A stretch of 46,531 nucleotides of DNA from contig CAZGSA010000001.1 in the NCBI GenBank assembly GCA_964528215.1, positions 1 through 46,531 of the forward strand. Direction: 5' to 3'. The DNA is from Candidatus Woesearchaeota archaeon (GTDB lineage Archaea > Nanobdellota > Nanobdellia > Pacearchaeales > GW2011-AR1). Within the stretch, counting starts at the first letter, position 1; every line of letters starts with the position of its first letter. The notes below the pieces were generated by a model that saw nothing but the letters and a program-made list of their open reading frames with translations, had not been told where the DNA came from and made no database searches. The position numbers and the translations under genes were made by a program. Shown here piece by piece: positions 20,684 to 38,933 of this stretch.

Positions 20684-20903
20684 CCAATACAAAGGTATTA
20701 ATATAATATAAATTTTAGAATTAAAAGAGATAAATAAAATTTAGAATATAATCCCTCAAGTTATTCAGGTAGAAGAATTAGGAAAATATTAAATTTAGTG
20801 TAAGGATTTAAGAGAATATAGAAAAAATCTATACATTATTATAAAGAAAACTAAGATTATTAAATGTAAGGAAATATCAAAAAAAATATCAGAATAAAAC
20901 AAA

Positions 20904-22445
20904 ATGGAAATAAATGAATTTTGGAAAGAAAAAGAAAAAAATATCATTCTTCATAACAATAAAATGAATATTATTGAATCTTGTATAGATAGACACTCTC
21001 AAAAAACACCAGACAAAATAGCTTTATTTTTTAAAGATGAAACCAATGAAATAAAATATACTTATAGGCAATTGCAAGAGGAAATAAGCAAGTTTTCAAA
21101 TTTATTAAATTCATTAGAAATTAAAAAGAATTCAAGAATATTTATCTTTCTTCCAAAAATACCAGAATTATATATTAATTTTCTAGGCACAATTAAACAA
21201 GGAAGCATAGCAATACCTTTATTTGAAGCTTTTCAAGAACAAGGATTAGAACTAAGACTAAAAAAAGGAGATGCAGAGGTTTTAATAACAAACAAAGAAC
21301 TCTTAAAAAGAGTCTCAAAAGATATAAAACAAAAAATTCCTTCTTTAAAACATATTTTAGTTGTAGATTCTGAAGATTATAAAAATAAGATAAAAGAGCA
21401 AGCATTAGAATTTAAAACAGTTTTAAAAGAAAAACAAGATACAAGTTTAATGATTTTCACATCTTCAACAGCAGGAACTCCTGTTGCAGGAATAGAAATT
21501 TCTCACTATGCACTAGTTCAACAGTATTTTACAGCAGAATTTGCTCTAGGGTTAAATAAAGATTCTAACTATTGGTGCACAGCACATCCAGGATGGGTTA
21601 CTGGAAGCATCTATGGGATAATAGCCCCACTATCTATTGGATGTTCTATTTTTATTCTAGAACAGCATTTTGATGCTAAAAAATGGATTGAATTTGCAAA
21701 TAATAATAAAATTAATATTCTCTATACTGCACCTACTGCACTAAGATTGTTAAAACCAGTTATTAAAAAACAAGATTTAAAATTTGTAGAAAAAATAAAT
21801 TCAGTTGGAGAAGCACTTACAAAAGCAACATTTGATTTTTATAATGATTTAGGGATTAAAATAACAGATACTTATTGGCAGACAGAAACAGGGGCAATTG
21901 TTATTGCAAATACAGAACATAAATATGCAAGTATGGGAAAACCAATCCCAGGTATAACTGCTGAAATTAAGGATAATGCAATTGCCTTAAAACCTGATTT
22001 CCCATCACTAATGACAGGGATTTATAAACATCCTAAAATGTTTGATAGTTATTTTAAAGACAATTGGTTTAAAACAAATGATAATGCAACCCTAGAAAAT
22101 GGATATTTCTTTTTTATAGGCAGAGGAGATGATATTATTAAAACTTCTGGAGAAAGAGTAAGCCCTATTGAAATAGAATCTATTTTAATGAAACATAAAT
22201 CAGTTCATGAAGCAGCAGTCATAGGAGTTCCAGATAAAATTAAAGGAAGTATTTTAAAAGCATTTATTGTTTTGAATTCAAACATTAAACAAACTAAAGA
22301 ATTAAAAGAAGAGCTAAGCATGTTTGTAAAAGAGAATTATGCAGGTCATTCTTATCCCAAACAGATTCAATTTATAGAATCTCTTCCAAAAACAAATTCT
22401 GGCAAAATTATAAGAATGGAATTAAGAAATCTTGAAAAATCTTAA
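20904..22445 (+). CDS. AMP-forming acyl-CoA/acetyl-CoA synthetase family enzyme
   Basis: 513-aa ORF. Adenylate-forming motifs YWQTETG, GRGDDIIKTSGERVSPIEIES and LPKTNSGKIIR. The P-loop-like motif TSSTAGTPVAG is degenerate. Confidence 0.85.
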   Translation: MEINEFWKEKEKNIILHNNKMNIIESCIDRHSQKTPDKIALFFKDETNEIKYTYRQLQEEISKFSNLLNSLEIKKNSRIFIFLPKIPELYINFLGTIKQGSIAIPLFEAFQEQGLELRLKKGDAEVLITNKELLKRVSKDIKQKIPSLKHILVVDSEDYKNKIKEQALEFKTVLKEKQDTSLMIFTSSTAGTPVAGIEISHYALVQQYFTAEFALGLNKDSNYWCTAHPGWVTGSIYGIIAPLSIGCSIFILEQHFDAKKWIEFANNNKINILYTAPTALRLLKPVIKKQDLKFVEKINSVGEALTKATFDFYNDLGIKITDTYWQTETGAIVIANTEHKYASMGKPIPGITAEIKDNAIALKPDFPSLMTGIYKHPKMFDSYFKDNWFKTNDNATLENGYFFFIGRGDDIIKTSGERVSPIEIESILMKHKSVHEAAVIGVPDKIKGSILKAFIVLNSNIKQTKELKEELSMFVKENYAGHSYPKQIQFIESLPKTNSGKIIRMELRNLEKS

Positions 22446-22578
22446 ATCAGATTTTTCAGATAAAAAATAGTCTTTTATTGAAGAAAGATTTTTTGAATAT
22501 GAGAAGGTTGAATTTTACTGAAAATTATTAATAATAATTTAACGAAAGCTTTTTATATAGTATTTTGTAATATATATT

Positions 22579-24012
22579 ATGAAAAAGTTAGTAATATTGT
22601 TAGGAATGTTAATGGTATTAGTTAGCACTTTAAATTTTGTTCTTGCAACTGAATTTACTGAACCAGGAACTTATGAAATTAAACCAGGAGATACTATAAC
22701 TTTTAATGATTTAACTGTTCAAGTTATAGATATAAAAACTAATGATAATAATGTTTCATGGGAGGAAGATTTTGGTAGGGAAATGGTTTATTTGGGTACA
22801 CCTGGATTAGGTTTTTATGTTTATGTCGATGAGAAAATGGAACTTGTTAAGGCAAAATATTCTAGTGAGAAACCAATAGCAGTTATTGTAAATTCTATTG
22901 ATATAGAAAATAAAAAAGCAGAAGTTCAATTTATTGATAACTATGATGATTGCATATTAGAATATAAGAAGAAATGTCAAGATTCTGATGTTTATTGGGA
23001 AGATAGTTGTGGAAGAACTGGAGAACTTTTAGAAGATTGTGACAGTGAAGGGTGCGAAACAACTTATGGTTCAGGAAAATGTATTAATCAAGGAAGCAAT
23101 TGTATTCCAAATTATACATCCTATTGTTATCATTTAGATGCTTATTGGAGAGATAGTTGTGGAAATGAAGGCGGTTTAAAAAAGGACTGTAGAGATGGAT
23201 GTTTAGAGGGGGAATGTAAAGAGAATATTTTAATAGAAAAAGATAGCCCAACATGTGGAGATGGAATATGCAATTTTAAGGATTTTGAATCAATTTATAT
23301 GGGTAGTAAAGATGGACAAGCACAATTTGAAGGGTGTTTTGAAGACTGTCCAAGTGATATAAATGACCCTCTTGACATGATTGTGGAATATCATATGAGG
23401 TATGATTCAGAAGGAAAAAGAGAGAATTCTGAAGATTATTATTATTTAAGAATAAATAACGAAGGTAATGAAAGAGTAGATATTGCTGATTTAATATTTG
23501 TTGTTACTGGAATAGATAGGGGAATAACCCAATATAATTTGTTCAATGAATTTTCTGGTGAAATTAACTCTGGAGAGAAAAAAGAATTTAAAGTAAAAAC
23601 TGGCTTTTCGGGCTCTTTGTCTGAAAGTTTATGTGGAGAAGAATTTTCATTTGCTCTAAGAAAGAAAGATACTGATAGACTATATCATTTTAATGGTGGT
23701 AAATTTTTAAAATGTGTTGATTCATATCCTGTAGAACCTGTTGAAAATAAACCTTTAGATATTCCAGAAGTAGATGAAAAGAAATTTTATGATTGTCAAG
23801 GTTGTGAATTAGATAAAAAATGTTATTCATTTGGATATAGAAAATCAAAAAAATATTGTTCTGATGAGGGAGATTTTAAACTTCAGTTAAAAACAGAAAG
23901 TACTTGTGAGAATAACTTTGAATGTGATAGTAATGTCTGTGTTGATGATAAGTGCGTAAGTGGTAGTTTAATATGGAAGATTATTAACTGGTTTAAAAGA
24001 TTATTTAGTTAA
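22579..24012 (+). CDS. Secreted cysteine-rich protein, unknown function
   Basis: 477-aa ORF. Signal peptide MKKLVILLGMLMVLVSTLNFVLA. Repeated C..D.YW.DSCG motif, a CGDGIC motif, and C-terminal Cys modules. Confidence 0.7.
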   Translation: MKKLVILLGMLMVLVSTLNFVLATEFTEPGTYEIKPGDTITFNDLTVQVIDIKTNDNNVSWEEDFGREMVYLGTPGLGFYVYVDEKMELVKAKYSSEKPIAVIVNSIDIENKKAEVQFIDNYDDCILEYKKKCQDSDVYWEDSCGRTGELLEDCDSEGCETTYGSGKCINQGSNCIPNYTSYCYHLDAYWRDSCGNEGGLKKDCRDGCLEGECKENILIEKDSPTCGDGICNFKDFESIYMGSKDGQAQFEGCFEDCPSDINDPLDMIVEYHMRYDSEGKRENSEDYYYLRINNEGNERVDIADLIFVVTGIDRGITQYNLFNEFSGEINSGEKKEFKVKTGFSGSLSESLCGEEFSFALRKKDTDRLYHFNGGKFLKCVDSYPVEPVENKPLDIPEVDEKKFYDCQGCELDKKCYSFGYRKSKKYCSDEGDFKLQLKTESTCENNFECDSNVCVDDKCVSGSLIWKIINWFKRLFS

Positions 24013-24112
24013 GATTATTTTTCTAACCCCTGCCTTTAAAATCAATTCATCATTCTGGATAATTTTTCATATAACCCTGACATTCTTTTGAACTTCTTGT
24101 GGTTGATAATTT

Positions 24113-24352
24113 TTATCTTTTCTTAGAAATCTTTTTAAGATTTCTTGCAAGAATTGCTCTTTCTTCTAAAAGTCTTGTTACTTTAATCTTTTTCTTCCCT
24201 ATTTTGGTAGGATTAGTAATTGTATCTCCAGCCCTTGCATTAATTATTGCATCTAACAAACTAACTGGAATCTTCTTATTATTAGGAATTTCTAATTGTT
24301 TATGCAAGGCCCCTTTCTTAACCCCTATCTTCTGAATCCATTTTATTGCCAT
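24113..24352 (-). CDS. Small basic protein, unknown function
   Basis: 79-aa Lys-rich ORF (KKGALHKQLEIP...). Preferred over the hydrophobic antisense ORF at 24099-24335. Confidence 0.5.
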   Translation of the reverse strand: MAIKWIQKIGVKKGALHKQLEIPNNKKIPVSLLDAIINARAGDTITNPTKIGKKKIKVTRLLEERAILARNLKKISKKR

Positions 24353-24560
24353 TTTAATTTCATCATTTAGTTATCTAAACTAGTAATTAAATATTTATAA
24401 ATTTATTGAGATATCAGCAAATATCAATAATCTAATGTAAATCTGTTCTCATCAGATAATTGCTAATCATCCACGCAACATAAATAAAAGATATCAGAAT
24501 CCCAGATTCATAACTTTTCTTCTAATAGATTATTAACATGTAGCACATCATCAGAATAAA

Positions 24561-25340
24561 TTACCATCTCCAGTTATAAGTTTGTGTTGCAAATTCATAT
24601 CTTGGTTTGTAATAATAATTATCATAATACTTATCTTCACACTCCCACTCTTCACACTCCCAATCAATACATTCATAGTCATAACATCTTCTCCCATAAT
24701 AAGAACTATAACCAGTATTCCAGCTAGAACATCTTTTTTCTACACAATTCCATTTCTCGCAAACACAATCTTTATAGTCCTGAGTTTTGTAAGGCTCTTT
24801 ATATCTCCAGTTTGAGTTATAGATAGGAACACTATAATCTGGTTTTTGACTATAATCTTTATAATCCTTTTTAGAATTTCCACTGCCTAATTTTAAAACA
24901 TACTGGTCTTTTTTTCTATTACTTGTATCCCATAAAAAATCCCAATCAATCCAGTTATAATCCTCATATCCATAATCATCCCCCCTATCTTCATATTTTT
25001 TATAATCTATCTCAACATCTCTTTTCTCTTTAATAGAAATTTTCTCTTTTTCATAACCTTCTTTATCCCTTTTTTCATATTCTGCTATTTTCTCATAATC
25101 ACTTGATTCTTTATAATAATCACTATTAGAGTAATCTTTATTATCCCAATTAAGATATATAGACTTAGAATTTCTTAAATTATCTGTGTCACTATATTTA
25201 TTATAATCTGTAGGAATTCCACAATCATAATAATATCCCCCTGTTCCCTTGCATAAATAAGCAGCAACAAAGTTAGTAGAAAATATAACTAGTATTAATC
25301 CAATGACTAAAATTAATAGAGAGAATAGATTTTTATTCAT
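24561..25340 (-). CDS. Secreted Tyr/Asp/Lys-rich protein with Cys/Trp-rich C-terminus
   Basis: 259-aa ORF. Signal peptide MNKNLFSLLILVIGLILVIFSTNFVAA. Low-complexity Y/D/K/E core. C-terminal WNCVEKRC and IDWECEEWECED. Confidence 0.65.
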   Translation of the reverse strand: MNKNLFSLLILVIGLILVIFSTNFVAAYLCKGTGGYYYDCGIPTDYNKYSDTDNLRNSKSIYLNWDNKDYSNSDYYKESSDYEKIAEYEKRDKEGYEKEKISIKEKRDVEIDYKKYEDRGDDYGYEDYNWIDWDFLWDTSNRKKDQYVLKLGSGNSKKDYKDYSQKPDYSVPIYNSNWRYKEPYKTQDYKDCVCEKWNCVEKRCSSWNTGYSSYYGRRCYDYECIDWECEEWECEDKYYDNYYYKPRYEFATQTYNWRW

Positions 25341-25415
25341 AAAAATAACAAAATTATGAAATATTTAAGCATTATTATATTGCAGGATAATAAGGGAAAA
25401 ATAATAAAATAAAAA

Positions 25416-25496
25416 CGCCACCAGTAGGAATCGAACCTACGAGCCCCGGAGGGCGAAGCTTAGCAAGCTCCTGCAATACCATTATGCGATGGTGGC
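25416..25496 (-). tRNA. tRNA-Ser (anticodon GCU)
   Basis: 81-nt cloverleaf. Acceptor GCCACCA/TGGTGGC, anticodon stem GGAGC/GCTTC with loop TTGCTAA, long variable arm GCCCTCCGGGGC, T-arm GTAGG-TTCGATT-CCTAC, discriminator G. TATA-like tatataaaaa lies 22-31 nt upstream and a T-tract follows downstream. Confidence 0.9.
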
Positions 25497-25602
25497 TTAG
25501 ATATTAAGATATTTTACTATATAAAAAGTTAATTGTTACAGATTTTTAAAGTTGATTTTTGTAATAAGTTAATTTTATTAAACCACTTTTCTTCAAAAGA
25601 CT

Positions 25603-26268
25603 ATGAAATTAGGAATCTTATTTTCAGGAGGCAAGGATAGTGTATTTGCAACTTATCTTGCAAAAAAATTAGGATATGAAGTCCCTTGTTTAATCAGTAT
25701 TATCTCTGAAAATAAAGAAAGTTACATGTTTCATACCCCTTCAATTTCAAAAGTTGAAAAACAAGCAAAAGCTATGAACATCCCTTTAATTCTAGAAAAA
25801 ACCAGGGGGAAAAAAGAAATTGAATTAAAAGACTTAGAAAGAGCAATTAAAATTGCTGTAGATAAATATCAAATTCAAGGGATTGTAACAGGAGCAATTG
25901 ATTCTATTTATCAATCCTCAAGAATTCAAAAGATTTGTAATAAATTAAAATTAGAATGTTTTAATCCCTTATGGCAAAAAGATCAAATAGAGCTTTTAGA
26001 GGATTTGATTAAAAACAAATTCAAGGTTATTATTTCAGGGGTTTTTGCATACCCTTTAACAAAAGAATGGTTGGGAAAACAAATAAACAAAGACTTTCTT
26101 ACCCAGATAAGAAAATTAAATGAAAAATATAAAATAAATCCTGCAGGAGAAGGTGGAGAATTTGAGACTTTTGTTCTTGATTGTCCTTTATTCAGAAAAT
26201 CTCTAAAAATAAAAAATAAAAAAATAACAGGTGAAAAAAATTCTTGGGTGATGGAGATAACAATATGA
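25603..26268 (+). CDS. dph6: Dph6/MJ0570-type PP-loop ATP pyrophosphatase (diphthine-ammonia ligase family)
   Basis: 221-aa ORF. PP-loop FSGGKDS and family hallmark GEGGEFETFVLD. Confidence 0.8.
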   Translation: MKLGILFSGGKDSVFATYLAKKLGYEVPCLISIISENKESYMFHTPSISKVEKQAKAMNIPLILEKTRGKKEIELKDLERAIKIAVDKYQIQGIVTGAIDSIYQSSRIQKICNKLKLECFNPLWQKDQIELLEDLIKNKFKVIISGVFAYPLTKEWLGKQINKDFLTQIRKLNEKYKINPAGEGGEFETFVLDCPLFRKSLKIKNKKITGEKNSWVMEITI

Positions 26269-26810
26269 AAAAAGTATTAATAGTAAATGTTTGTAAGGAG
26301 AAATTACATTATCTTGAATTTGTAAAACCTATTGAAGATATTTTAAAAAATAATAAGATTAAATTTAAAACTTTAATTTATAAAAATATTAATAAATCTC
26401 AATTAATTAAATACAATAAAATAATTATTAGTGGAACTTCTTTAAAAGATAATTATTTTCTAAAAGATATAGGCAAGTTTTCTTGGATTAAGGATACTGA
26501 GATACCTATTCTTGGAATTTGTTCTGGGATGCAGATAATAGGGTTAGAATTTGGAGGTAGATTAAAAAAGAAAACAGAAATAGGATTTTTTAAGGAAAAT
26601 TTTAAAAAAGATTTACTTGGATTAAAAAGAGAGCAAGAAGTTTACCATTTACACAATAATTATATAGAATTTACAGAACATTTTGAGATAATCTCTAAAA
26701 ATAATATAACTCAAGCAGTAAAACATAAATCAAAAGAAATATATGGGGTATTATTTCATCCAGAGGTTAGAAATAAGAAATTAATCTTAAATTTTATAGA
26801 TAAAAAATAG
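26265..26810 (+). CDS. Class I glutamine amidotransferase (GuaA subunit A-like)
   Basis: Catalytic Cys in ILGICSGMQIIG and His-Glu in LFHPEV. The ATG at 26265 overlaps the Dph6 stop (ATGA). The track start at 26244 is TTG. Confidence 0.75.
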   Translation: MKKVLIVNVCKEKLHYLEFVKPIEDILKNNKIKFKTLIYKNINKSQLIKYNKIIISGTSLKDNYFLKDIGKFSWIKDTEIPILGICSGMQIIGLEFGGRLKKKTEIGFFKENFKKDLLGLKREQEVYHLHNNYIEFTEHFEIISKNNITQAVKHKSKEIYGVLFHPEVRNKKLILNFIDKK

Positions 26811-26830
26811 GCTTTCTAGTTTTTATATCT

Positions 26831-26949
26831 CTTGCCAACCCTGAAGGGCGTGGCTTAGCAATCCTACTCCTCAAAGCAATTTCTTATTTTATCTATTCAC
26901 TAAATACTAAAATTGCTTTTGCTCGACAACACCACTATGCGATGTGGGC
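26831..26949 (-). ncRNA. Truncated tRNA-Ser-like element 1 (5' two-thirds of the tRNA, no T-arm; possible pseudogene)
   Basis: Minus strand reads GCCCACATCGCATAGTGGTGTTGTCGAGC, then a 60-nt hairpin module, then AGGATTGCTAAGCCACGCCCTTCAGGG. This is homologous to the tRNA-Ser from position 1 through the variable arm. A TATA-like box lies 26-31 nt upstream. Confidence 0.6.
26865..26924 (-). repeat. 60-nt hairpin module inserted in tRNA-like element 1
   Basis: GAGC-AAAAGCAATTTT...AAATTGCTTTG-AGGAGTA. The stem AAAGCAATT/AATTGCTTT encloses an AT-rich loop. The same module is present twice in element 3. Confidence 0.8.
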
Positions 26950-26964
26950 ATGTGAAGATAGATT

Positions 26965-26985
26965 ATTTTAAGAATTTAAAGGTTT
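26965..26985 (-). promoter_or_regulatory. Conserved BRE/TATA-like promoter motif of tRNA-like element 1
   Basis: The 21-mer attttaagaatttaaaggttt is identical at 28033-28053. The TATA core tttaaa lies 26-31 nt from the first G of the element. Confidence 0.55.
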
Positions 26986-27016
26986 GTTTTTTTATTATTT
27001 TATCCAAACCATCACC

Positions 27017-27211
27017 TTATCTACTAACTGCCCTCAACAACCTTATCTTTTCCTTACCCTCTTCAGTTTCAGCTAGCTTTGAATAAAATCTTCTTGCCAT
27101 GATTATCTGAGCATTAACAAAATCCTTAAATTTTGATTTCCATTTATCAGGATTATCACGAACATATTCTGCCCATCTTTCAATTTGTTCTGAATGTGTT
27201 TTATCTCTCAT
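27017..27211 (-). CDS. Small helical protein, partner of the NTase-fold protein
   Basis: 64-aa ORF whose ATG overlaps the stop of 27208-27783 by 4 nt (ATGA). Confidence 0.5.
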   Translation of the reverse strand: MRDKTHSEQIERWAEYVRDNPDKWKSKFKDFVNAQIIMARRFYSKLAETEEGKEKIRLLRAVSR

Positions 27212-27783
27212 TTTCTAAATCTCCTTATCTTTTCTTTAATAACCTCTATCTCATTCTCATCCAATTTATTTTTATATATTATCCTAAGATGTTTTGCATC
27301 TTCAACATCCTTATCTGAACCTAAATATTCCTCTTTAAATGCAATATTTGATTCTATGGTTGAAAAATAAACCTCAACTTCAGTAAGAGGAAGTTTGATT
27401 CTATTTTTAATTTGTTCTCTATCCAATTCATCTTTTGGAAATTTGATTTCCATTTCTGGTGGAAAATAGCCCTCTTCGTCCTCCACATATCTTACACTAT
27501 CTCCTTTATTAAGATAATCCACATAGATTACTTCTGGTTTTTCTGATTGCATGCAAGTAAATCCTTTTTCTTTTAGTTCTCTGTGCATTTTTAAAAATTC
27601 TTTTTCAGACATTTTTTCAATAATCATATCAATATCCTCAGTCCCTCTTGTCCTGCCATGAGCAATAGCAACAAAACCAGAACAGATAATATACCTCGCA
27701 TATTTATCAATAACTTCACAAAAGTCCTCTACAAATTTATCCAAAATGGTTCTATTATCTACTCTTCTTTCAAACTTTTCCAT
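27208..27783 (-). CDS. Minimal nucleotidyltransferase-fold protein (MNT/AbiEii-like)
   Basis: 191-aa ORF. SGFVAIAHGRTRGTEDIDMII fits the G-x(n)-D-x-D NTase signature. Confidence 0.6.
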   Translation of the reverse strand: MEKFERRVDNRTILDKFVEDFCEVIDKYARYIICSGFVAIAHGRTRGTEDIDMIIEKMSEKEFLKMHRELKEKGFTCMQSEKPEVIYVDYLNKGDSVRYVEDEEGYFPPEMEIKFPKDELDREQIKNRIKLPLTEVEVYFSTIESNIAFKEEYLGSDKDVEDAKHLRIIYKNKLDENEIEVIKEKIRRFRK

Positions 27784-27885
27784 AATATACTTAACTTCAA
27801 TATCTATATAATATTTTCTATAGAAAATTTTAGTAAACCTTCTTTAAAGATTTTCCCTTTACAATAAATTTAAAAATAAAAAATA

Positions 27886-28013
27886 GGAGCTTAGTTCTAA
27901 GAATCACCTTAATAGGTCCTTGGTTAGTTGGAAGAAAGTGATATTTTTTACTAACAGTTACAATTTTATGACCTATTTTAGCAACACCACTACAATACAT
28001 ATATAGTGTGGGC
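27886..28013 (-). ncRNA. Truncated tRNA-like element 2 (more degenerate; possible pseudogene)
   Basis: GCCCACAC...GTGGTGTTGC, then an unrelated hairpin (AATAGGTC at 27911-27918 pairs with GACCTATT at 27970-27977), then ...CTAAGCTCC followed by a T-tract. Shares the 21-nt promoter motif with element 1. Confidence 0.5.
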
Positions 28014-28032
28014 TTATTCTAGATTAATAAAA

Positions 28033-28053
28033 ATTTTAAGAATTTAAAGGTTT
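28033..28053 (-). promoter_or_regulatory. Conserved BRE/TATA-like promoter motif of tRNA-like element 2
   Basis: Identical 21-mer attttaagaatttaaaggttt, 20 nt upstream of the element's 5' end. Confidence 0.5.
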
Positions 28054-28110
28054 ACGCCCTAATATTTTCATTACATAAATTTTATATAATCTATTTAATA
28101 TATAACTATT

Positions 28111-28311
28111 ATGAACACTCTAAGCAGAACAATCACAGGAACTATTGCAATTATTTTAGGATTATTTTTAATTATACTTAGTATTTTTAAAGAATATTTC
28201 ATATTAATCTATGGAATACCCATTCTTATTATTGGGATTTTTATTCTTTTAAATAAAAAAGAAGATGATATAGAAACTATAAAAACTAAAAGAAAAGGAG
28301 GTGAAAAATAA
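28111..28311 (+). CDS. Small two-TM membrane protein
   Basis: 66-aa ORF. Its stop overlaps the YbjQ start (TAATG). GGAGGTG lies upstream of the next start. Confidence 0.55.
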   Translation: MNTLSRTITGTIAIILGLFLIILSIFKEYFILIYGIPILIIGIFILLNKKEDDIETIKTKRKGGEK

Positions 28312-28634
28312 TGGTAGATATAATTATTACAACTGGAAATGAAATTCCTGAAAAAAAGATTACTAAAATTCTTGGAGTTGTAAGAGGCAGCACTGTAAGG
28401 GCAAGAAATATTGGAAGGGATATTGGAGCTGGATTTAAAAATATTATCGGTGGAGAAGTCAAAACCTATACAGAGATGACAAAACAATCAAGAGATGAAG
28501 CATTTAATAGAATGGTTAATGAAGCCTTGGATTTAAAGGCTGATGCAGTTATTGGTGTTAGATTTACAACTTCTATGGTAATGGCAGGAGCTTCTGAAAT
28601 GCTTGCATATGGAACTGCAATTAAAATTAGTTAA
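28311..28634 (+). CDS. YbjQ/UPF0145 family protein
   Basis: 107-aa ORF. ILGVVRGSTVRARNIGRDIGAGFKNIIGGE...AVIGVRF...AYGTAIKI is typical of the family. Confidence 0.85.
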   Translation: MVDIIITTGNEIPEKKITKILGVVRGSTVRARNIGRDIGAGFKNIIGGEVKTYTEMTKQSRDEAFNRMVNEALDLKADAVIGVRFTTSMVMAGASEMLAYGTAIKIS

Positions 28635-28635
28635 T

Positions 28636-28725
28636 TTATTTCTTTAATTTTCTTTGCTTAGATTTTCTACGTTGAGCTTGCTTACTTCTTGCTTTAATTT
28701 TTCTTGTTACCCTATTTCTTGGCAT
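28636..28725 (-). CDS. 29-aa highly basic peptide (not in ORF track)
   Basis: MPRNRVTRKIKARSKQAQRRKSKQRKLKK. The ATG is preceded by AGGAGGAAAA. Lies directly downstream of tRNA-like element 3 on the same strand. Confidence 0.4.
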   Translation of the reverse strand: MPRNRVTRKIKARSKQAQRRKSKQRKLKK

Positions 28726-28776
28726 TTTTCCTCCTAAATTAAATTATTTTTAATTATTATTAATATTTTCTACTAT

Positions 28777-28953
28777 GGGCTCACTTTTGTACCCTTATTA
28801 GCAACCTTACTTCCCAAAGCAATTTCTTATTTTATCTATTTACTAAATACTAAAATTGCTTTTGCTCTACTCCCCAAAACAATTTCTTATTTTATCTATT
28901 TACTAAATACTAAAATTGCTTTTGCTCAACAATAACCATTATGCGATGCGGGC
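28777..28953 (-). ncRNA. Truncated tRNA-Ser-like element 3 with duplicated hairpin module (possible pseudogene)
   Basis: GCCCGCATCGCATAATGGTTATTGTT, then two 60-nt modules, then AGGTTGCTAATAAGGGTACAAAAGTGAGCCC. No T-arm or 3' acceptor strand. TATA-like tttaaa lies 28-33 nt upstream. Confidence 0.6.
28808..28927 (-). repeat. Tandem 2 x 60-nt hairpin module
   Basis: Units 28808-28867 and 28868-28927 differ at 2 positions. Homologous to 26865-26924. Confidence 0.85.
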
Positions 28954-29054
28954 TTATAGAAATATATAATATTTTATGATTTTAAATGTTTGTGTTTTAA
29001 ACATTTTTTCTACACAAGATTTAAAAAATAATTTATCTTAATCATCTTAATTTT

Positions 29055-30452
29055 ATGGAAATTAAATCACAAAAAGAGGCGGTTGAAAAACTTAGAGAAA
29101 AGACTAAGAAAATAAGCATAATTGAAGCAAGTGCCTATAGTGTTCATGAAGGTTTTGGTATAAAATACATAACCCCCTTTGCACTTGCAATTGGAAAAAA
29201 TAATCCTCAGATAAACACATTTATAGGTTTATTGACTTCTATTCCTTCTTTAATAGGAAATCTTTCACAACTCTTTACAATAAAGGCAATTGAAAATCAT
29301 AGGAGAAAGAATATACTAACCCTAGGGATTATTCTCCAGGCAATCATGTGGTGGGGAGTAATCTTTGCAGGAAGCTTGTTTTTTATTTTTAAACTTAATT
29401 CAAGTGTTGCTTTGACAGCCCTAATCCTGTTTTATACATTGCTTATTTTAATGGGTGCATTTGTAGGTCCTGCATGGGTATCTCTAATGAAAGAGATTGT
29501 TACTGATAAAGAAGGAAGTTATTTTGGAAACAGAAATAGGATTGCAGGAATCTTTGCAATAATCTCTGCATTGATTGCAGGATATCTTTTAGATTACCTA
29601 ACAACTAAGGATTTGTTCTTGGGATTTGTAATCCTATTTTTAATAGCTTTCCTCTTTAGATTTATTTCCGGGTTGCTCTTCACTATTCATTATGAGCCTA
29701 AACTAGAGTTTGATAAATCAAACTATTTTAGCTTTTACAAGTTTATAAAAAAGATTCCAAGTAGTAATTTTGGGAAGTTCAGTCTTTTTATCTCTTTATT
29801 TATCCTTGCAACTTCTATTGCTTCACCATTTTTTTCAGTTTATATGTTAAGAGACCTTGGGTTTAATTACTCAACCTGGATGATAATAACCTTGGCAGGA
29901 CCTTTATCTTCACTTTTTTTTATGCCAATGTGGGGATATTTTGCCGACAAGTTTGGAAATATTAAAATATTAAAAATAACAGGGTTAGTAATACCCACTA
30001 TTCCTATCTTATGGATTTTTTCAATCTTTTTTAATAACTCTTTTTACCTCTTGTTCTATCTAATAATCTTGGAATTCTTCTCAGGCTTTTTATGGGCAGG
30101 ATTTAATCTATCTTACGCAAACTTTATCTATGATGCAGTTACAAAGCAGAAGACAGCTCTTTGTTCAGCTTATTTTAATATTCTTCAAGGATTTGGAGTT
30201 TTTATAGGAGCAACATTAGGAGGATTTATATCTTCATTAAATATTTTTATTTTTGGTCTCAGTTCATTACTGTTTGTCTTTGCACTATCAGGTATAGCCA
30301 GATTTTTATCCTACATCCTGATTATATTTAGGATTAAAGAGATAAGAGATGTTAAACCTTTCAGGCTAGAAGAATTAAAGAAAATTCATATAAAACCTTT
30401 CCTAGATATTTTCAATCTTAAGATAATCCATCCAAGACCAAATGGGAATTAA
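29055..30452 (+). CDS. MFS-type transporter
   Basis: 465-aa ORF with about 12 hydrophobic helices arranged in two halves. Confidence 0.7.
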   Translation: MEIKSQKEAVEKLREKTKKISIIEASAYSVHEGFGIKYITPFALAIGKNNPQINTFIGLLTSIPSLIGNLSQLFTIKAIENHRRKNILTLGIILQAIMWWGVIFAGSLFFIFKLNSSVALTALILFYTLLILMGAFVGPAWVSLMKEIVTDKEGSYFGNRNRIAGIFAIISALIAGYLLDYLTTKDLFLGFVILFLIAFLFRFISGLLFTIHYEPKLEFDKSNYFSFYKFIKKIPSSNFGKFSLFISLFILATSIASPFFSVYMLRDLGFNYSTWMIITLAGPLSSLFFMPMWGYFADKFGNIKILKITGLVIPTIPILWIFSIFFNNSFYLLFYLIILEFFSGFLWAGFNLSYANFIYDAVTKQKTALCSAYFNILQGFGVFIGATLGGFISSLNIFIFGLSSLLFVFALSGIARFLSYILIIFRIKEIRDVKPFRLEELKKIHIKPFLDIFNLKIIHPRPNGN

Positions 30453-30539
30453 GGTATTTTAAAGATTTGTGTTTTAAATGCCATCAGATTTAAACAAATT
30501 TTCCATAAGACTTATATACTAATTTTTGTTAATTAAAAT

Positions 30540-30893
30540 ATGAAAAAGGTGATATTATTTTTATTAGTAGGAATATTTCTTATGAGTTTTGTAGTTGCAC
30601 AAGGACAAGGAATTCACAATCCTGGAACAGGAATTGAAAATCCAGAGATTAAAGAAGCAGGACAAGGAACTGGACAAGGATTAGAAACAGATACTCAAAA
30701 TCAAGGGTTAGATACTAATTTACAAAATCAAATCAGAGTTAGAGATGGAGATTATATAGGAGAAAAAGGACAACAAATAAAAATCCAGAAACAATCAAAT
30801 AATAGAGTAAGATTAGAAGTTGGTGGAATTGGGGTAAATTGTGATTGCAATATGACTCAGGAACAAATTCAGAATAAAACAAAATGGAAATAA
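30540..30893 (+). pseudogene. Truncated copy of the secreted Gln/Gly-rich protein gene, cut by the duplication junction
   Basis: Identical to 40520-41179 up to ...QIQNKT. It then reads KWK-stop across the junction, giving 117 aa instead of 219 aa. Confidence 0.85.
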
Positions 30894-32425
30894 ATGAATT
30901 TTGGAAAGAAAAAGAAAAAAATATCATTCTTCATAACAATAAAATGAATATTATTGAATCTTGTATAGATAGACACTCTCAAAAAACACCAGACAAAATA
31001 GCTTTATTTTTTAAAGATGAAACCAATGAAATAAAATATACTTATAGGCAATTGCAAGAGGAAATAAGCAAGTTTTCAAATTTATTAAATTCATTAGAAA
31101 TTAAAAAGAATTCAAGAATATTTATCTTTCTTCCAAAAATACCAGAATTATATATTAATTTTCTAGGCACAATTAAACAAGGAAGCATAGCAATACCTTT
31201 ATTTGAAGCTTTTCAAGAACAAGGATTAGAACTAAGACTAAAAAAAGGAGATGCAGAGGTTTTAATAACAAACAAAGAACTCTTAAAAAGAGTCTCAAAA
31301 GATATAAAACAAAAAATTCCTTCTTTAAAACATATTTTAGTTGTAGATTCTGAAGATTATAAAAATAAGATAAAAGAGCAAGCATTAGAATTTAAAACAG
31401 TTTTAAAAGAAAAACAAGATACAAGTTTAATGATTTTCACATCTTCAACAGCAGGAACTCCTGTTGCAGGAATAGAAATTTCTCACTATGCACTAGTTCA
31501 ACAGTATTTTACAGCAGAATTTGCTCTAGGGTTAAATAAAGATTCTAACTATTGGTGCACAGCACATCCAGGATGGGTTACTGGAAGCATCTATGGGATA
31601 ATAGCCCCACTATCTATTGGATGTTCTATTTTTATTCTAGAACAGCATTTTGATGCTAAAAAATGGATTGAATTTGCAAATAATAATAAAATTAATATTC
31701 TCTATACTGCACCTACTGCACTAAGATTGTTAAAACCAGTTATTAAAAAACAAGATTTAAAATTTGTAGAAAAAATAAATTCAGTTGGAGAAGCACTTAC
31801 AAAAGCAACATTTGATTTTTATAATGATTTAGGGATTAAAATAACAGATACTTATTGGCAGACAGAAACAGGGGCAATTGTTATTGCAAATACAGAACAT
31901 AAATATGCAAGTATGGGAAAACCAATCCCAGGTATAACTGCTGAAATTAAGGATAATGCAATTGCCTTAAAACCTGATTTCCCATCACTAATGACAGGGA
32001 TTTATAAACATCCTAAAATGTTTGATAGTTATTTTAAAGACAATTGGTTTAAAACAAATGATAATGCAACCCTAGAAAATGGATATTTCTTTTTTATAGG
32101 CAGAGGAGATGATATTATTAAAACTTCTGGAGAAAGAGTAAGCCCTATTGAAATAGAATCTATTTTAATGAAACATAAATCAGTTCATGAAGCAGCAGTC
32201 ATAGGAGTTCCAGATAAAATTAAAGGAAGTATTTTAAAAGCATTTATTGTTTTGAATTCAAACATTAAACAAACTAAAGAATTAAAAGAAGAGCTAAGCA
32301 TGTTTGTAAAAGAGAATTATGCAGGTCATTCTTATCCCAAACAGATTCAATTTATAGAATCTCTTCCAAAAACAAATTCTGGCAAAATTATAAGAATGGA
32401 ATTAAGAAATCTTGAAAAATCTTAA
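30884..32425 (+). CDS. AMP-forming acyl-CoA synthetase family enzyme (copy 2)
   Basis: Translation identical to 20904-22445. Only 15 nt of the native upstream sequence are retained. Confidence 0.85.
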   Translation: MEINEFWKEKEKNIILHNNKMNIIESCIDRHSQKTPDKIALFFKDETNEIKYTYRQLQEEISKFSNLLNSLEIKKNSRIFIFLPKIPELYINFLGTIKQGSIAIPLFEAFQEQGLELRLKKGDAEVLITNKELLKRVSKDIKQKIPSLKHILVVDSEDYKNKIKEQALEFKTVLKEKQDTSLMIFTSSTAGTPVAGIEISHYALVQQYFTAEFALGLNKDSNYWCTAHPGWVTGSIYGIIAPLSIGCSIFILEQHFDAKKWIEFANNNKINILYTAPTALRLLKPVIKKQDLKFVEKINSVGEALTKATFDFYNDLGIKITDTYWQTETGAIVIANTEHKYASMGKPIPGITAEIKDNAIALKPDFPSLMTGIYKHPKMFDSYFKDNWFKTNDNATLENGYFFFIGRGDDIIKTSGERVSPIEIESILMKHKSVHEAAVIGVPDKIKGSILKAFIVLNSNIKQTKELKEELSMFVKENYAGHSYPKQIQFIESLPKTNSGKIIRMELRNLEKS

Positions 32426-32558
32426 ATCAGATTTTTCAGATAAAAAATAGTCTTTTATTGAAGAAAGATTTTTTGAATATGAGAAGGTTGAATTTTACTG
32501 AAAATTATTAATAATAATTTAACGAAAGCTTTTTATATAGTATTTTGTAATATATATT

Positions 32559-33992
32559 ATGAAAAAGTTAGTAATATTGTTAGGAATGTTAATGGTATTA
32601 GTTAGCACTTTAAATTTTGTTCTTGCAACTGAATTTACTGAACCAGGAACTTATGAAATTAAACCAGGAGATACTATAACTTTTAATGATTTAACTGTTC
32701 AAGTTATAGATATAAAAACTAATGATAATAATGTTTCATGGGAGGAAGATTTTGGTAGGGAAATGGTTTATTTGGGTACACCTGGATTAGGTTTTTATGT
32801 TTATGTCGATGAGAAAATGGAACTTGTTAAGGCAAAATATTCTAGTGAGAAACCAATAGCAGTTATTGTAAATTCTATTGATATAGAAAATAAAAAAGCA
32901 GAAGTTCAATTTATTGATAACTATGATGATTGCATATTAGAATATAAGAAGAAATGTCAAGATTCTGATGTTTATTGGGAAGATAGTTGTGGAAGAACTG
33001 GAGAACTTTTAGAAGATTGTGACAGTGAAGGGTGCGAAACAACTTATGGTTCAGGAAAATGTATTAATCAAGGAAGCAATTGTATTCCAAATTATACATC
33101 CTATTGTTATCATTTAGATGCTTATTGGAGAGATAGTTGTGGAAATGAAGGCGGTTTAAAAAAGGACTGTAGAGATGGATGTTTAGAGGGGGAATGTAAA
33201 GAGAATATTTTAATAGAAAAAGATAGCCCAACATGTGGAGATGGAATATGCAATTTTAAGGATTTTGAATCAATTTATATGGGTAGTAAAGATGGACAAG
33301 CACAATTTGAAGGGTGTTTTGAAGACTGTCCAAGTGATATAAATGACCCTCTTGACATGATTGTGGAATATCATATGAGGTATGATTCAGAAGGAAAAAG
33401 AGAGAATTCTGAAGATTATTATTATTTAAGAATAAATAACGAAGGTAATGAAAGAGTAGATATTGCTGATTTAATATTTGTTGTTACTGGAATAGATAGG
33501 GGAATAACCCAATATAATTTGTTCAATGAATTTTCTGGTGAAATTAACTCTGGAGAGAAAAAAGAATTTAAAGTAAAAACTGGCTTTTCGGGCTCTTTGT
33601 CTGAAAGTTTATGTGGAGAAGAATTTTCATTTGCTCTAAGAAAGAAAGATACTGATAGACTATATCATTTTAATGGTGGTAAATTTTTAAAATGTGTTGA
33701 TTCATATCCTGTAGAACCTGTTGAAAATAAACCTTTAGATATTCCAGAAGTAGATGAAAAGAAATTTTATGATTGTCAAGGTTGTGAATTAGATAAAAAA
33801 TGTTATTCATTTGGATATAGAAAATCAAAAAAATATTGTTCTGATGAGGGAGATTTTAAACTTCAGTTAAAAACAGAAAGTACTTGTGAGAATAACTTTG
33901 AATGTGATAGTAATGTCTGTGTTGATGATAAGTGCGTAAGTGGTAGTTTAATATGGAAGATTATTAACTGGTTTAAAAGATTATTTAGTTAA
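32559..33992 (+). CDS. Secreted cysteine-rich protein (copy 2)
   Basis: Identical to 22579-24012 at +9,980. Confidence 0.7.
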   Translation: MKKLVILLGMLMVLVSTLNFVLATEFTEPGTYEIKPGDTITFNDLTVQVIDIKTNDNNVSWEEDFGREMVYLGTPGLGFYVYVDEKMELVKAKYSSEKPIAVIVNSIDIENKKAEVQFIDNYDDCILEYKKKCQDSDVYWEDSCGRTGELLEDCDSEGCETTYGSGKCINQGSNCIPNYTSYCYHLDAYWRDSCGNEGGLKKDCRDGCLEGECKENILIEKDSPTCGDGICNFKDFESIYMGSKDGQAQFEGCFEDCPSDINDPLDMIVEYHMRYDSEGKRENSEDYYYLRINNEGNERVDIADLIFVVTGIDRGITQYNLFNEFSGEINSGEKKEFKVKTGFSGSLSESLCGEEFSFALRKKDTDRLYHFNGGKFLKCVDSYPVEPVENKPLDIPEVDEKKFYDCQGCELDKKCYSFGYRKSKKYCSDEGDFKLQLKTESTCENNFECDSNVCVDDKCVSGSLIWKIINWFKRLFS

Positions 33993-34092
33993 GATTATTT
34001 TTCTAACCCCTGCCTTTAAAATCAATTCATCATTCTGGATAATTTTTCATATAACCCTGACATTCTTTTGAACTTCTTGTGGTTGATAATTT

Positions 34093-34332
34093 TTATCTTT
34101 TCTTAGAAATCTTTTTAAGATTTCTTGCAAGAATTGCTCTTTCTTCTAAAAGTCTTGTTACTTTAATCTTTTTCTTCCCTATTTTGGTAGGATTAGTAAT
34201 TGTATCTCCAGCCCTTGCATTAATTATTGCATCTAACAAACTAACTGGAATCTTCTTATTATTAGGAATTTCTAATTGTTTATGCAAGGCCCCTTTCTTA
34301 ACCCCTATCTTCTGAATCCATTTTATTGCCAT
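34093..34332 (-). CDS. Small basic protein (copy 2)
   Basis: Identical to 24113-24352 at +9,980. Confidence 0.5.
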   Translation of the reverse strand: MAIKWIQKIGVKKGALHKQLEIPNNKKIPVSLLDAIINARAGDTITNPTKIGKKKIKVTRLLEERAILARNLKKISKKR

Positions 34333-34540
34333 TTTAATTTCATCATTTAGTTATCTAAACTAGTAATTAAATATTTATAAATTTATTGAGATATCAGCAA
34401 ATATCAATAATCTAATGTAAATCTGTTCTCATCAGATAATTGCTAATCATCCACGCAACATAAATAAAAGATATCAGAATCCCAGATTCATAACTTTTCT
34501 TCTAATAGATTATTAACATGTAGCACATCATCAGAATAAA

Positions 34541-35320
34541 TTACCATCTCCAGTTATAAGTTTGTGTTGCAAATTCATATCTTGGTTTGTAATAATAATT
34601 ATCATAATACTTATCTTCACACTCCCACTCTTCACACTCCCAATCAATACATTCATAGTCATAACATCTTCTCCCATAATAAGAACTATAACCAGTATTC
34701 CAGCTAGAACATCTTTTTTCTACACAATTCCATTTCTCGCAAACACAATCTTTATAGTCCTGAGTTTTGTAAGGCTCTTTATATCTCCAGTTTGAGTTAT
34801 AGATAGGAACACTATAATCTGGTTTTTGACTATAATCTTTATAATCCTTTTTAGAATTTCCACTGCCTAATTTTAAAACATACTGGTCTTTTTTTCTATT
34901 ACTTGTATCCCATAAAAAATCCCAATCAATCCAGTTATAATCCTCATATCCATAATCATCCCCCCTATCTTCATATTTTTTATAATCTATCTCAACATCT
35001 CTTTTCTCTTTAATAGAAATTTTCTCTTTTTCATAACCTTCTTTATCCCTTTTTTCATATTCTGCTATTTTCTCATAATCACTTGATTCTTTATAATAAT
35101 CACTATTAGAGTAATCTTTATTATCCCAATTAAGATATATAGACTTAGAATTTCTTAAATTATCTGTGTCACTATATTTATTATAATCTGTAGGAATTCC
35201 ACAATCATAATAATATCCCCCTGTTCCCTTGCATAAATAAGCAGCAACAAAGTTAGTAGAAAATATAACTAGTATTAATCCAATGACTAAAATTAATAGA
35301 GAGAATAGATTTTTATTCAT
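34541..35320 (-). CDS. Secreted Tyr/Asp/Lys-rich protein (copy 2)
   Basis: Identical to 24561-25340 at +9,980. Confidence 0.65.
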   Translation of the reverse strand: MNKNLFSLLILVIGLILVIFSTNFVAAYLCKGTGGYYYDCGIPTDYNKYSDTDNLRNSKSIYLNWDNKDYSNSDYYKESSDYEKIAEYEKRDKEGYEKEKISIKEKRDVEIDYKKYEDRGDDYGYEDYNWIDWDFLWDTSNRKKDQYVLKLGSGNSKKDYKDYSQKPDYSVPIYNSNWRYKEPYKTQDYKDCVCEKWNCVEKRCSSWNTGYSSYYGRRCYDYECIDWECEEWECEDKYYDNYYYKPRYEFATQTYNWRW

Positions 35321-35395
35321 AAAAATAACAAAATTATGAAATATTTAAGCATTATTATATTGCAGGATAATAAGGGAAAAATAATAAAATAAAAA

Positions 35396-35476
35396 CGCCA
35401 CCAGTAGGAATCGAACCTACGAGCCCCGGAGGGCGAAGCTTAGCAAGCTCCTGCAATACCATTATGCGATGGTGGC
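35396..35476 (-). tRNA. tRNA-Ser (anticodon GCU), copy 2
   Basis: Identical to 25416-25496 at +9,980. Confidence 0.9.
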
Positions 35477-35582
35477 TTAGATATTAAGATATTTTACTAT
35501 ATAAAAAGTTAATTGTTACAGATTTTTAAAGTTGATTTTTGTAATAAGTTAATTTTATTAAACCACTTTTCTTCAAAAGACT

Positions 35583-36248
35583 ATGAAATTAGGAATCTTA
35601 TTTTCAGGAGGCAAGGATAGTGTATTTGCAACTTATCTTGCAAAAAAATTAGGATATGAAGTCCCTTGTTTAATCAGTATTATCTCTGAAAATAAAGAAA
35701 GTTACATGTTTCATACCCCTTCAATTTCAAAAGTTGAAAAACAAGCAAAAGCTATGAACATCCCTTTAATTCTAGAAAAAACCAGGGGGAAAAAAGAAAT
35801 TGAATTAAAAGACTTAGAAAGAGCAATTAAAATTGCTGTAGATAAATATCAAATTCAAGGGATTGTAACAGGAGCAATTGATTCTATTTATCAATCCTCA
35901 AGAATTCAAAAGATTTGTAATAAATTAAAATTAGAATGTTTTAATCCCTTATGGCAAAAAGATCAAATAGAGCTTTTAGAGGATTTGATTAAAAACAAAT
36001 TCAAGGTTATTATTTCAGGGGTTTTTGCATACCCTTTAACAAAAGAATGGTTGGGAAAACAAATAAACAAAGACTTTCTTACCCAGATAAGAAAATTAAA
36101 TGAAAAATATAAAATAAATCCTGCAGGAGAAGGTGGAGAATTTGAGACTTTTGTTCTTGATTGTCCTTTATTCAGAAAATCTCTAAAAATAAAAAATAAA
36201 AAAATAACAGGTGAAAAAAATTCTTGGGTGATGGAGATAACAATATGA
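35583..36248 (+). CDS. dph6: Dph6/MJ0570-type PP-loop ATP pyrophosphatase (copy 2)
   Basis: Identical to 25603-26268 at +9,980. Confidence 0.8.
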   Translation: MKLGILFSGGKDSVFATYLAKKLGYEVPCLISIISENKESYMFHTPSISKVEKQAKAMNIPLILEKTRGKKEIELKDLERAIKIAVDKYQIQGIVTGAIDSIYQSSRIQKICNKLKLECFNPLWQKDQIELLEDLIKNKFKVIISGVFAYPLTKEWLGKQINKDFLTQIRKLNEKYKINPAGEGGEFETFVLDCPLFRKSLKIKNKKITGEKNSWVMEITI

Positions 36249-36790
36249 AAAAAGTATTAATAGTAAATGTTTGTAAGGAGAAATTACATTATCTTGAATT
36301 TGTAAAACCTATTGAAGATATTTTAAAAAATAATAAGATTAAATTTAAAACTTTAATTTATAAAAATATTAATAAATCTCAATTAATTAAATACAATAAA
36401 ATAATTATTAGTGGAACTTCTTTAAAAGATAATTATTTTCTAAAAGATATAGGCAAGTTTTCTTGGATTAAGGATACTGAGATACCTATTCTTGGAATTT
36501 GTTCTGGGATGCAGATAATAGGGTTAGAATTTGGAGGTAGATTAAAAAAGAAAACAGAAATAGGATTTTTTAAGGAAAATTTTAAAAAAGATTTACTTGG
36601 ATTAAAAAGAGAGCAAGAAGTTTACCATTTACACAATAATTATATAGAATTTACAGAACATTTTGAGATAATCTCTAAAAATAATATAACTCAAGCAGTA
36701 AAACATAAATCAAAAGAAATATATGGGGTATTATTTCATCCAGAGGTTAGAAATAAGAAATTAATCTTAAATTTTATAGATAAAAAATAG
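36245..36790 (+). CDS. Class I glutamine amidotransferase (copy 2)
   Basis: Identical to 26265-26810 at +9,980. Confidence 0.75.
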   Translation: MKKVLIVNVCKEKLHYLEFVKPIEDILKNNKIKFKTLIYKNINKSQLIKYNKIIISGTSLKDNYFLKDIGKFSWIKDTEIPILGICSGMQIIGLEFGGRLKKKTEIGFFKENFKKDLLGLKREQEVYHLHNNYIEFTEHFEIISKNNITQAVKHKSKEIYGVLFHPEVRNKKLILNFIDKK

Positions 36791-36810
36791 GCTTTCTAGT
36801 TTTTATATCT

Positions 36811-36929
36811 CTTGCCAACCCTGAAGGGCGTGGCTTAGCAATCCTACTCCTCAAAGCAATTTCTTATTTTATCTATTCACTAAATACTAAAATTGCTTTT
36901 GCTCGACAACACCACTATGCGATGTGGGC
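36811..36929 (-). ncRNA. Truncated tRNA-Ser-like element 1, copy 2
   Basis: Identical to 26831-26949 at +9,980. Hairpin module at 36845-36904. Confidence 0.6.
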
Positions 36930-38756: not shown

Positions 38757-38933
38757 GGGCTCACTTTTGTACCCTTATTAGCAACCTTACTTCCCAAAGC
38801 AATTTCTTATTTTATCTATTTACTAAATACTAAAATTGCTTTTGCTCTACTCCCCAAAACAATTTCTTATTTTATCTATTTACTAAATACTAAAATTGCT
38901 TTTGCTCAACAATAACCATTATGCGATGCGGGC
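38757..38933 (-). ncRNA. Truncated tRNA-Ser-like element 3, copy 2
   Basis: Identical to 28777-28953 at +9,980. The 2 x 60-nt module lies at 38788-38907. Confidence 0.6.

Follow-up and report, generated by a model that had tools for sequence, protein, structure and literature searches.

A family of covarying hairpin modules in tRNA-like fragments and intergenic DNA of Pacearchaeota-type archaea

The 60-nt unit that interrupts two partial tRNA-Ser copies in a Candidatus Woesearchaeota archaeon is a member of an undescribed family of structured hairpin modules, 48–63 nt long and specific to Pacearchaeota-type DPANN archaea. The hairpin is maintained by compensatory changes across 68 copies, occurs in several contexts, lies in the tRNA sense orientation wherever its flanks are tRNA-like, and shows no bulge-helix-bulge (BHB) motif with a correct exon junction at its borders. 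As to its nature, we favor a mobile hairpin module, discrete and strand-specific, that is carried along in recombination-site fragments derived from tRNA, and we put the probability of this reading at about 0.5.

The interruption, splitting and fragmentation of archaeal tRNA genes, and the arrival of non-canonical intervening sequences within them, are open questions. The genus studied here offers dozens of copies of one constrained module, placed in tRNA fragments, one intact tRNA gene and a transposon end, together with clean filled and empty sites. Should the module move as DNA, it would represent a new hairpin repeat of archaea, one directed at recombination sites; should it be spliced, a tRNA intron without a BHB motif; and should it form part of an att site, it would point to hairpin-based cassette capture in DPANN archaea.

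Structure and distribution of the module

The window, that is, the whole 46,531-nt stretch of DNA that was analysed, contains three minus-strand units of 60 nt, one in a first tRNA-like element and two that abut in another (Table 1). Direct reading and a repeat search of the window both confirm this arrangement as the initial annotation had described it. The two abutting units differ from each other at 2 of 60 positions, and each differs from the single unit at 3. The repeat search recovered one repeat family, composed of the three units and of exact second copies (36835-36907 and 38778-38910), which are present because positions 20889-30882 are perfectly repeated 9,980 bp downstream, so that every element stands twice in the window. 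This perfect head-to-tail duplication (20889-40862) could be a true recent event or an assembly artefact. The tandem pair reads as a recent second copy that may have arisen by re-insertion or unequal exchange. The downstream member of the pair is followed by GTAAGGTTGCTAA, as is the module in the single-copy homologue of a related genome (G007).

Table 1. Module copies and the elements that carry them, in window coordinates.
Feature	Positions	Strand	Remarks
Intact tRNA-Ser(GCU)	25416..25496	-	Downstream end of the array; elements 1-3 lie upstream
Element 1	26806..26949	-	Promoter, tRNA-Ser-like 5' part, module at 26/27, TTGCTAA loop, variable arm, degenerate tail, T-run
Module copy, element 1	26865..26924	-	26867-26925 when measured between closing pairs; best R1 match, 98.9 bits
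Element 2	27877..28013	-	Degenerate tRNA-Ser-like 5' part without module, TTGCTAA, conserved tail 27945-27967
Element 3	28770..28955	-	tRNA-Ser-like 5' part, two modules, TTGCTAA, conserved tail (ACAAAAGTGAGCCCATAGTAGAAAA); followed by a 29-aa basic ORF
Module, downstream member of the element 3 tandem pair	28808..28867	-	R1 78.6 bits
Module, upstream member of the element 3 tandem pair	28868..28927	-	R1 74.3 bits
Exact second copy, element 1 module	36845..36904	-	Inside the 9,980-bp tandem duplication
Exact second copy, element 3 tandem pair	38788..38907	-	Inside the 9,980-bp tandem duplication

Folding of a single unit gives a stem of 11 bp and an A/U-rich loop (-11.2 kcal/mol, z = -2.9), and the tandem pair yields z = -5.0; the hairpin and its loop had been recognised earlier, but with a stem of 9 bp. 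The consensus of an alignment of 68 module copies is Y-GAG-Y-AAAAG(C/G/U)A(A/U/C)UUU ... AAA(U/A/G)U(G/A)CUUUU-R-NGA-R. Standard pairs occupy 95% of the cells in this alignment, 10 of the 14 pairs show compensatory changes on both sides, and doubly changed cells number 62 against 15.7 in shuffles. None of 500 shuffles reached the observed pairing values, and sliding the partners as a control lowers pairing to 62% or less. G·U cells outnumber A·C cells by 54 to 10, which shows that the fold is read on the sense strand of the tRNA-like flanks.

Each module measures 48–63 nt between its closing pairs (median 52) and comprises a 12–13-bp A/U-rich stem, a conserved foot loop (5'-GAG / 5'-NGA) and one outer covarying Y-R pair. 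The flanking GAGC and GGAG(T), which had been taken for a duplicated strand of the anticodon stem, are conserved in every context, including those without any tRNA. They constitute the two sides of a symmetric internal loop of G·A, A·G and then G·N, with tandem G·A mismatches. The pairs that close this loop covary: 51 rows have C-G and 7 have U-A at the inner pair, the counts at the outer pair (column 11 / column 85) are 40 C-G, 9 U-A and 3 U-G, and the switches from C-G to U-A occur in different sub-families. The feet are therefore part of the module and do not represent a target duplication.

The source genome is a 1.07-Mb MAG with 27% G+C and 73% completeness, in which the exact core occurs at this locus only. 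Related hairpins beside tRNA-Ser genes were returned from several genomes of the same genus by a 3.7-kb BLAST search of relatives. With a covariance model (R1) built from nine module copies, the module was detected in 29 of the 49 genomes of the genus, on different contigs and in up to 10 copies per genome, and once more in the source genome, on contig C118. A pattern scan of one genome per species across 185,579 species found 31 loci, all but two labelled Pacearchaeota, Woesearchaeota or Nanoarchaeota; of the remaining two, one is labelled 'archaeon' and the other is a 'bacterium' MAG. Six loci were found in JGI metagenomes with a narrower pattern that includes tRNA-Ser-type flanks, all of them of the tRNA-Ser-like type. 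The pattern scan of IMG/VR viral contigs found no module, and a viral origin was rejected on that ground. Likewise, Rfam gave matches to tRNA and 5S rRNA only in the window and 20 related loci and none to the module, which speaks against a known RNA family.

Sites that carry the module

Elements 1–3 are partial copies of tRNA-Ser, co-oriented with the nearby intact gene. Each begins with GCCC(A/G)CA about 25 nt past a BRE/TATA-like AAACCTTTAAATTC motif, and each contains TTGCTAA; T-runs terminate elements 1 and 2. The tRNA-Ser-like part of elements 1 and 3 consists of the 5' acceptor strand and the D arm, after which come the module(s) and (G/A)TTGCTAA, the equivalent of the GCU anticodon loop. 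The variable arm is retained in element 1. A T arm and a 3' acceptor strand are missing from both of these elements, their anticodon stems are unpaired, and they are unable to yield a functional tRNA. The separate hairpin of element 2 (27911-27977) had been placed at a position equivalent to that of the module. It sits on the other side of the loop, 3' of TTGCTAA (27978-27985) and overlapping the conserved tail, whereas the module in elements 1 and 3 lies 5' of TTGCTAA.

The possibility that the elements are split-tRNA halves joined by trans-splicing was rejected, as no T arm with a 3' acceptor strand complementary to GCCCRCA occurs in the 73% complete genome; the acceptor strands of the 3' fragments on C118 are TAGGCCC and ATCGCCC, neither of which fits GCCCRCA. 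Pairing of the tail with the 5' acceptor strand was also discarded, no consistent complementarity being visible by eye. Element 3 is followed at 28635-28723 on the minus strand by an Arg/Lys-rich ORF of 29 aa with a strong Shine-Dalgarno sequence. This ORF is found at 84–89% DNA identity in three related genomes, where it also adjoins tRNA-Ser-like elements.

Five contexts were distinguished among the copies. The first (a) is position 26/27 of tRNA-Ser-like 5' fragments, which occur in the window, in relatives and in metagenomes. These fragments always end with TTGCTAA and a conserved tail, A(C/U)AAAAGUGUAACAGUUAGUAGAAA or AUAAAAAUGGGCACUAUACUAAAAA, a combination common to several genomes, and they often bear two additional covarying hairpins in the D loop. 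Six such long-form elements have D-loop hairpins of the kind of CAGAAATTGAAAATTTCTG and TTCAAAACCCATAAAAGATTTTGAA, with stem covariation between genomes as seen by eye. The tRNA-like segments between the hairpins of long-form elements (GCATA, TAATGGTATTGC, CAGGATTGCTAA) show good conservation in genomes and metagenomes alike, which is not expected of inert scars.

The second context (b) is position 38/39 of a tRNA-Val(UAC)-like 3' fragment, of which a long and a short form are adjacent on C118; a tRNA-Val(UAC) gene was not found in the source assembly. The two fragments on C118 (1824-1875 and 1944-2085, the one without and the other with the module) consist of an anticodon loop TTTACAC, a T arm and an acceptor strand, and are preceded by a leader that is conserved in another genome (G025). 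The third context (c) comprises fragments made up of the T arm and the 3' acceptor strand just downstream of intact tRNAs, such as the tRNA-Gln of G067. Counted by eye, the distance from the end of the module to the tRNA 3' end is 11 nt in seven of these fragments, 12–13 nt in six and 16 nt in three, whatever part is kept upstream. Behind the tRNA-Gln (G067:C7, 415-760) stand three tandem non-coding units with a 140-nt period, two of them identical, each of which combines an inverted T-arm-like repeat with the module and the tRNA's final 11 nt.

Dispersed intergenic repeats form the fourth context (d). Their largest class is a hairpin whose 3' arm is split by the module, and which, once the module is taken away, corresponds to the end hairpin adjoining the IS200-type Y1 transposase gene of the source genome. 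The fifth context (e) is a single complete tRNA-Ser(GGA) gene in genome G062, with which element 1 shares homology through the variable arm. The initial annotation had inferred a preference for one tRNA position; this is too narrow, since about half of the module copies lie outside tRNA-like sequence. Where the flanks are tRNA-like, all of about 40 copies are in the tRNA sense orientation.

Several of these sites are available in filled and empty form. At the tRNA-Gln 3' end, fragments with AATCC[module]TGGTGGGGCTA compare with AATCC|TGGTGGGGCTA, and at the IS200-type end hairpin AAAGGT[module]GTGGG compares with AAAGGT|GTAGG; neither comparison reveals a target duplication. The long and short tRNA-Val-like fragments on C118 represent a further such pair. 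The genome G025 contains two abutting modules that differ in their stems and have the same feet. A fixed insertion target was rejected, as the bases 5' of the module vary with the context (ATCC, TTGC, AAGG, ACAC, TTCGA and others).

The elements that host the module fit serial site-specific integration in the tRNA-Ser anticodon loop and at the 3' ends of other tRNAs. The source genome, of about 1 Mb, encodes four different tRNA-Ser(GCU) genes, on contigs C7 (19652-19734), C35 (7787-7869) and C88 (3828-3910) and in the window. Phage_integrase-family genes adjoin two of them, on C35 (6413-7624) and on C7 (17836-18528 and 11407-12630), and next to one of these integrases there is a TTGCTAA flanked by the tail motif in inverted form. 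tRNA-Ser(GCU) looks like an integration hot spot. No integrase was found within the window, and none is consistently adjacent to the arrays examined. Fragment arrays in relatives separate small cassettes that carry toxin-antitoxin pairs, NYN and HD nucleases, and transporters.

At two loci in relatives (G015:C6, ~1150-1300, and G014:C7), a second copy of the tRNA's first 13 nt lies directly upstream of an intact tRNA-Ser gene; after this copy come two hairpins and a stretch complementary to it. The tRNA would therefore carry a structured leader of about 110 nt able to pair with its own 5' end.

The Y1_Tnp gene of the source genome (contig C6, 19521-19967; PF01797, E = 7e-25) is of the IS200/IS605 type and is flanked by hairpins. 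It is the only Y1 transposase gene found in this genome, and modules do not flank it. Its end hairpin differs from the hairpin of the module, which sits inside dispersed copies of that end hairpin. The hairpin downstream of the gene, CCTACACCTTTGGGTGTAGG, is a dispersed repeat in relatives, with a compensatory change.

Weighing the explanations

According to the reading that we prefer, the module would be a discrete unit that has been inserted many times, without target duplication and on one strand throughout. Its landing sites would be hairpin-forming DNA that serves recombination, namely tRNA-derived fragments by tRNA genes and the IS200/IS605-type end hairpin. Elements 1 and 3 would represent junction fragments of the att type, belonging to integrative elements whose site of recombination is the anticodon loop of tRNA-Ser (TTGCTAA), and the module in them would be a passenger rather than a spliced intron. 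We infer that it moves at the DNA level, as a folded single strand. Against this reading stand the lack of a conserved target sequence, the Y1 gene without flanking modules, the absence of an integrase from the window and the good conservation of the tRNA-like segments in long-form elements. Moreover, the complete gene of G062, a good tRNA-Ser(GGA) once the module is removed, fits an intron, or else a reconstituted att junction that needs splicing, and the near-fixed 11–13 nt between module and tRNA end in the 3'-end fragments could mean that the module is a built-in part of a recombination site.

The intron question was approached by in silico removal of the module from 72 copies, at all plausible borders, followed by ARAGORN. 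A tRNA was restored in one copy alone, the solitary tRNA-Ser(GGA) gene of G062. This gene has a promoter, the module exactly at 26/27, a paired anticodon stem and a G73 discriminator, together with one C·A mismatch in the T stem and C·U at the inner closing pair of the module; the 5 kb around it contain no further tRNA or module. ARAGORN misses the gene until the module is removed, a warning for annotation, as tRNA finders miss module-bearing genes of this kind. Run on the whole source genome, ARAGORN reports no tRNA-Ala, tRNA-Val(UAC), tRNA-Ser(GGA/CGA) or tRNA-Gln(UUG), which may reflect the 73% completeness or genes hidden by similarly unusual intervening sequences.

A purpose-made BHB scanner, positive on four of the five canonical introns of the source genome, detected at the module borders a BHB-like arrangement in a shifted register only, and no motif, relaxed BHB included, with the correct junction. 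The shifted register would leave 4 extra nucleotides in the tRNA and is contradicted by the covariation, which supports the symmetric loop. The BHB motif was rejected on both counts, in agreement with the earlier search by eye. The canonical introns of the source genome's tRNAs do not contain the module. A conventional archaeal tRNA intron is thus not supported by the sequences, and splicing of the G062 gene by a non-BHB route is possible. The initial annotation had proposed a mobile non-canonical tRNA intron or a miniature insertion element. Mobility of a discrete unit has held up, through the many contexts, the filled and empty sites and the sense-strand association with tRNA, but the conventional non-canonical intron has not, given the missing BHB motif and the single successful splice-out among 72.

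We consider it unlikely that the module is instead a tRNA intervening sequence of a new, non-BHB kind, removed, for instance, by a broad-specificity splicing endonuclease or by another RNase acting with a ligase. Such a sequence would have spread between tRNA positions, as the transposing introns of the Thermoproteales have, and elements 1 and 3 would be truncated intron-bearing copies of tRNA-Ser. This explanation accounts for the complete solitary gene of G062 and the homology of element 1 with it, and it would also accommodate the uniform sense orientation of the copies with tRNA-like flanks, the asymmetry of G·U over A·C on the sense strand and the conservation of the exon-like segments of long-form elements. 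The positions concerned (26/27, 38/39 and T loop 58-63) resemble those of non-canonical introns (review PMC4090602). However, a correct BHB or relaxed BHB junction is lacking, and the covariation favors a symmetric 3x3 loop over staggered bulges. Furthermore, 71 of the 72 copies leave no tRNA after removal, about half of all copies reside in non-tRNA DNA, including an IS end, and the G062 gene itself has the C·A and C·U mismatches.

Alternatively, the module could be the structured half of a hairpin-type recombination site, the folded hairpin being read by a recombinase as integron integrases read attC, an explanation that we hold to be rather unlikely. Cassettes carrying a tRNA-like arm, the module and a 9–12-nt core that matches a tRNA segment exactly would be taken up at tRNA genes, and elements 1 and 3 would be such sites. 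The near-constant spacing to the tRNA 3' end, as counted by eye, suggests as much, and so does the presence of one module beside cores from different tRNAs (Gln, Ser, Val and others). The fragment and cassette arrays with toxin-antitoxin, NYN and HD genes, the 140-nt tandem non-coding units behind tRNA-Gln and the several tyrosine recombinases encoded in the source genome likewise speak for it. Yet modules are missing from many fragments of these arrays, such as element 2, the short forms in three other genomes and the first of the two fragments on C118. Other copies occupy IS ends and promoter-proximal intergenic DNA without a tRNA core, an attC-like R/L box consensus is absent, and the arrays examined have no consistently adjacent integrase. 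More speculatively, and with a correspondingly low likelihood, DPANN archaea may possess a tRNA-anchored analogue of the integron, in which cassettes consisting of a hairpin and a 9–12-nt copy of a tRNA segment are captured at tRNA genes by a recombinase that reads the folded single strand. The G062 gene would then be a reconstituted junction, which also implies removal of the hairpin by a non-BHB route.

It is improbable that the module is an RNA motif recognised by a protein such as L7Ae or a different RNA chaperone, and that it stabilizes or marks small non-coding RNAs and has been recruited rather than mobilized. The G·A tandem, the non-Watson-Crick pair and the C-G pair match the non-canonical stem of a box C/D kink-turn. 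BRE/TATA-like promoters on elements 1–3, the T-runs that end elements 1 and 2 and selection of the structure on the transcribed strand agree with such a role. Nevertheless, the module lacks the 3-nt bulge that defines a kink-turn, the nucleotides on the 5' side of one GA and on the 3' side of the opposite GA covary and so pair directly, Rfam returns no match, and the filled and empty sites look like insertions. Lastly, a local duplication artefact of pseudogene decay, which the initial annotation would have accepted had the module been found nowhere else and shown no processing in RNA data, is hardly credible: the module is nearly confined to this locus within an incomplete genome, and the perfect 9,980-bp duplication is a possible assembly artefact, but copies on another contig of the source genome (C118) and in a further 28 genomes of the genus, among which compensatory changes are seen, refute it.

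Comparison with known systems

The foot of the module resembles a box C/D-type kink-turn in having sheared G·A pairs in tandem, next to which come a variable non-Watson-Crick pair and then a Watson-Crick pair. A kink-turn was rejected all the same, for the 3-nt bulge 5' of the tandem G·A is missing and the flanking nucleotides pair with each other (column 11/85), which leads to a symmetric 3x3 internal loop.

The module shares with integron attC sites a hairpin at cassette boundaries that is conserved in structure and variable in sequence, is read on one strand and has a short shared core next to it. It differs from them in having neither the R''/L''-L'/R' boxes nor the GTTRRRY core (the 68-copy consensus has YGAGY...RNGAR feet), and in having no IntI-type integrase adjacent; in addition, many cassette boundaries are without a module and many modules are away from cassette boundaries.

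The transposing non-canonical tRNA introns of the Thermoproteales occur in complete tRNA genes, have BHB or relaxed BHB borders and are substrates of the splicing endonuclease (Fujishima et al. 2010, according to the reviews PMC4090602 and PMC4033280). Like the module, they are short related sequences on the sense strand at various positions of various tRNA genes, including the T loop and the surroundings of the anticodon stem, which implies movement between tRNA sites. Unlike them, the module has no BHB motif, lies outside any complete tRNA in 71 of 72 copies and is also found in an IS end and in intergenic DNA.

Fragments of tRNA genes at the att sites of elements with tyrosine integrases are collected in the Islander database (PMC4383910), and a model of tRNA gene disruption by integration has been put forward (PMC3293823). 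The host elements described here are similar to such fragments: they are partial tRNA-Ser copies, co-oriented and beside an intact tRNA-Ser, with a TTGCTAA core and small accessory-gene cassettes between them, and integrases adjoin other tRNA-Ser(GCU) genes of the source genome. In contrast to the classical case, a conserved structured insertion is present in the tRNA-homologous segment and no integrase lies in the window; the att model covers the hosts of the hairpin but not the hairpin itself.

REP elements, PATEs and MITEs derived from IS200/IS605 are mobilized by Y1/HUH transposases. The module departs from these in its low number of 1–10 copies per genome, in the lack of a conserved target tetra- or pentanucleotide and in a Y1 gene that is not flanked by modules, and its hairpin is not that of the IS end, to which the transposase should bind. 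As they are, it is a short imperfect palindrome with a conserved 5'-foot motif, multi-copy, dispersed, strand-specific, inserted without target duplication and sometimes arranged in tandem. Finally, a Y1_Tnp gene is present in the genome, and dispersed copies of the end hairpin of its element contain the module.
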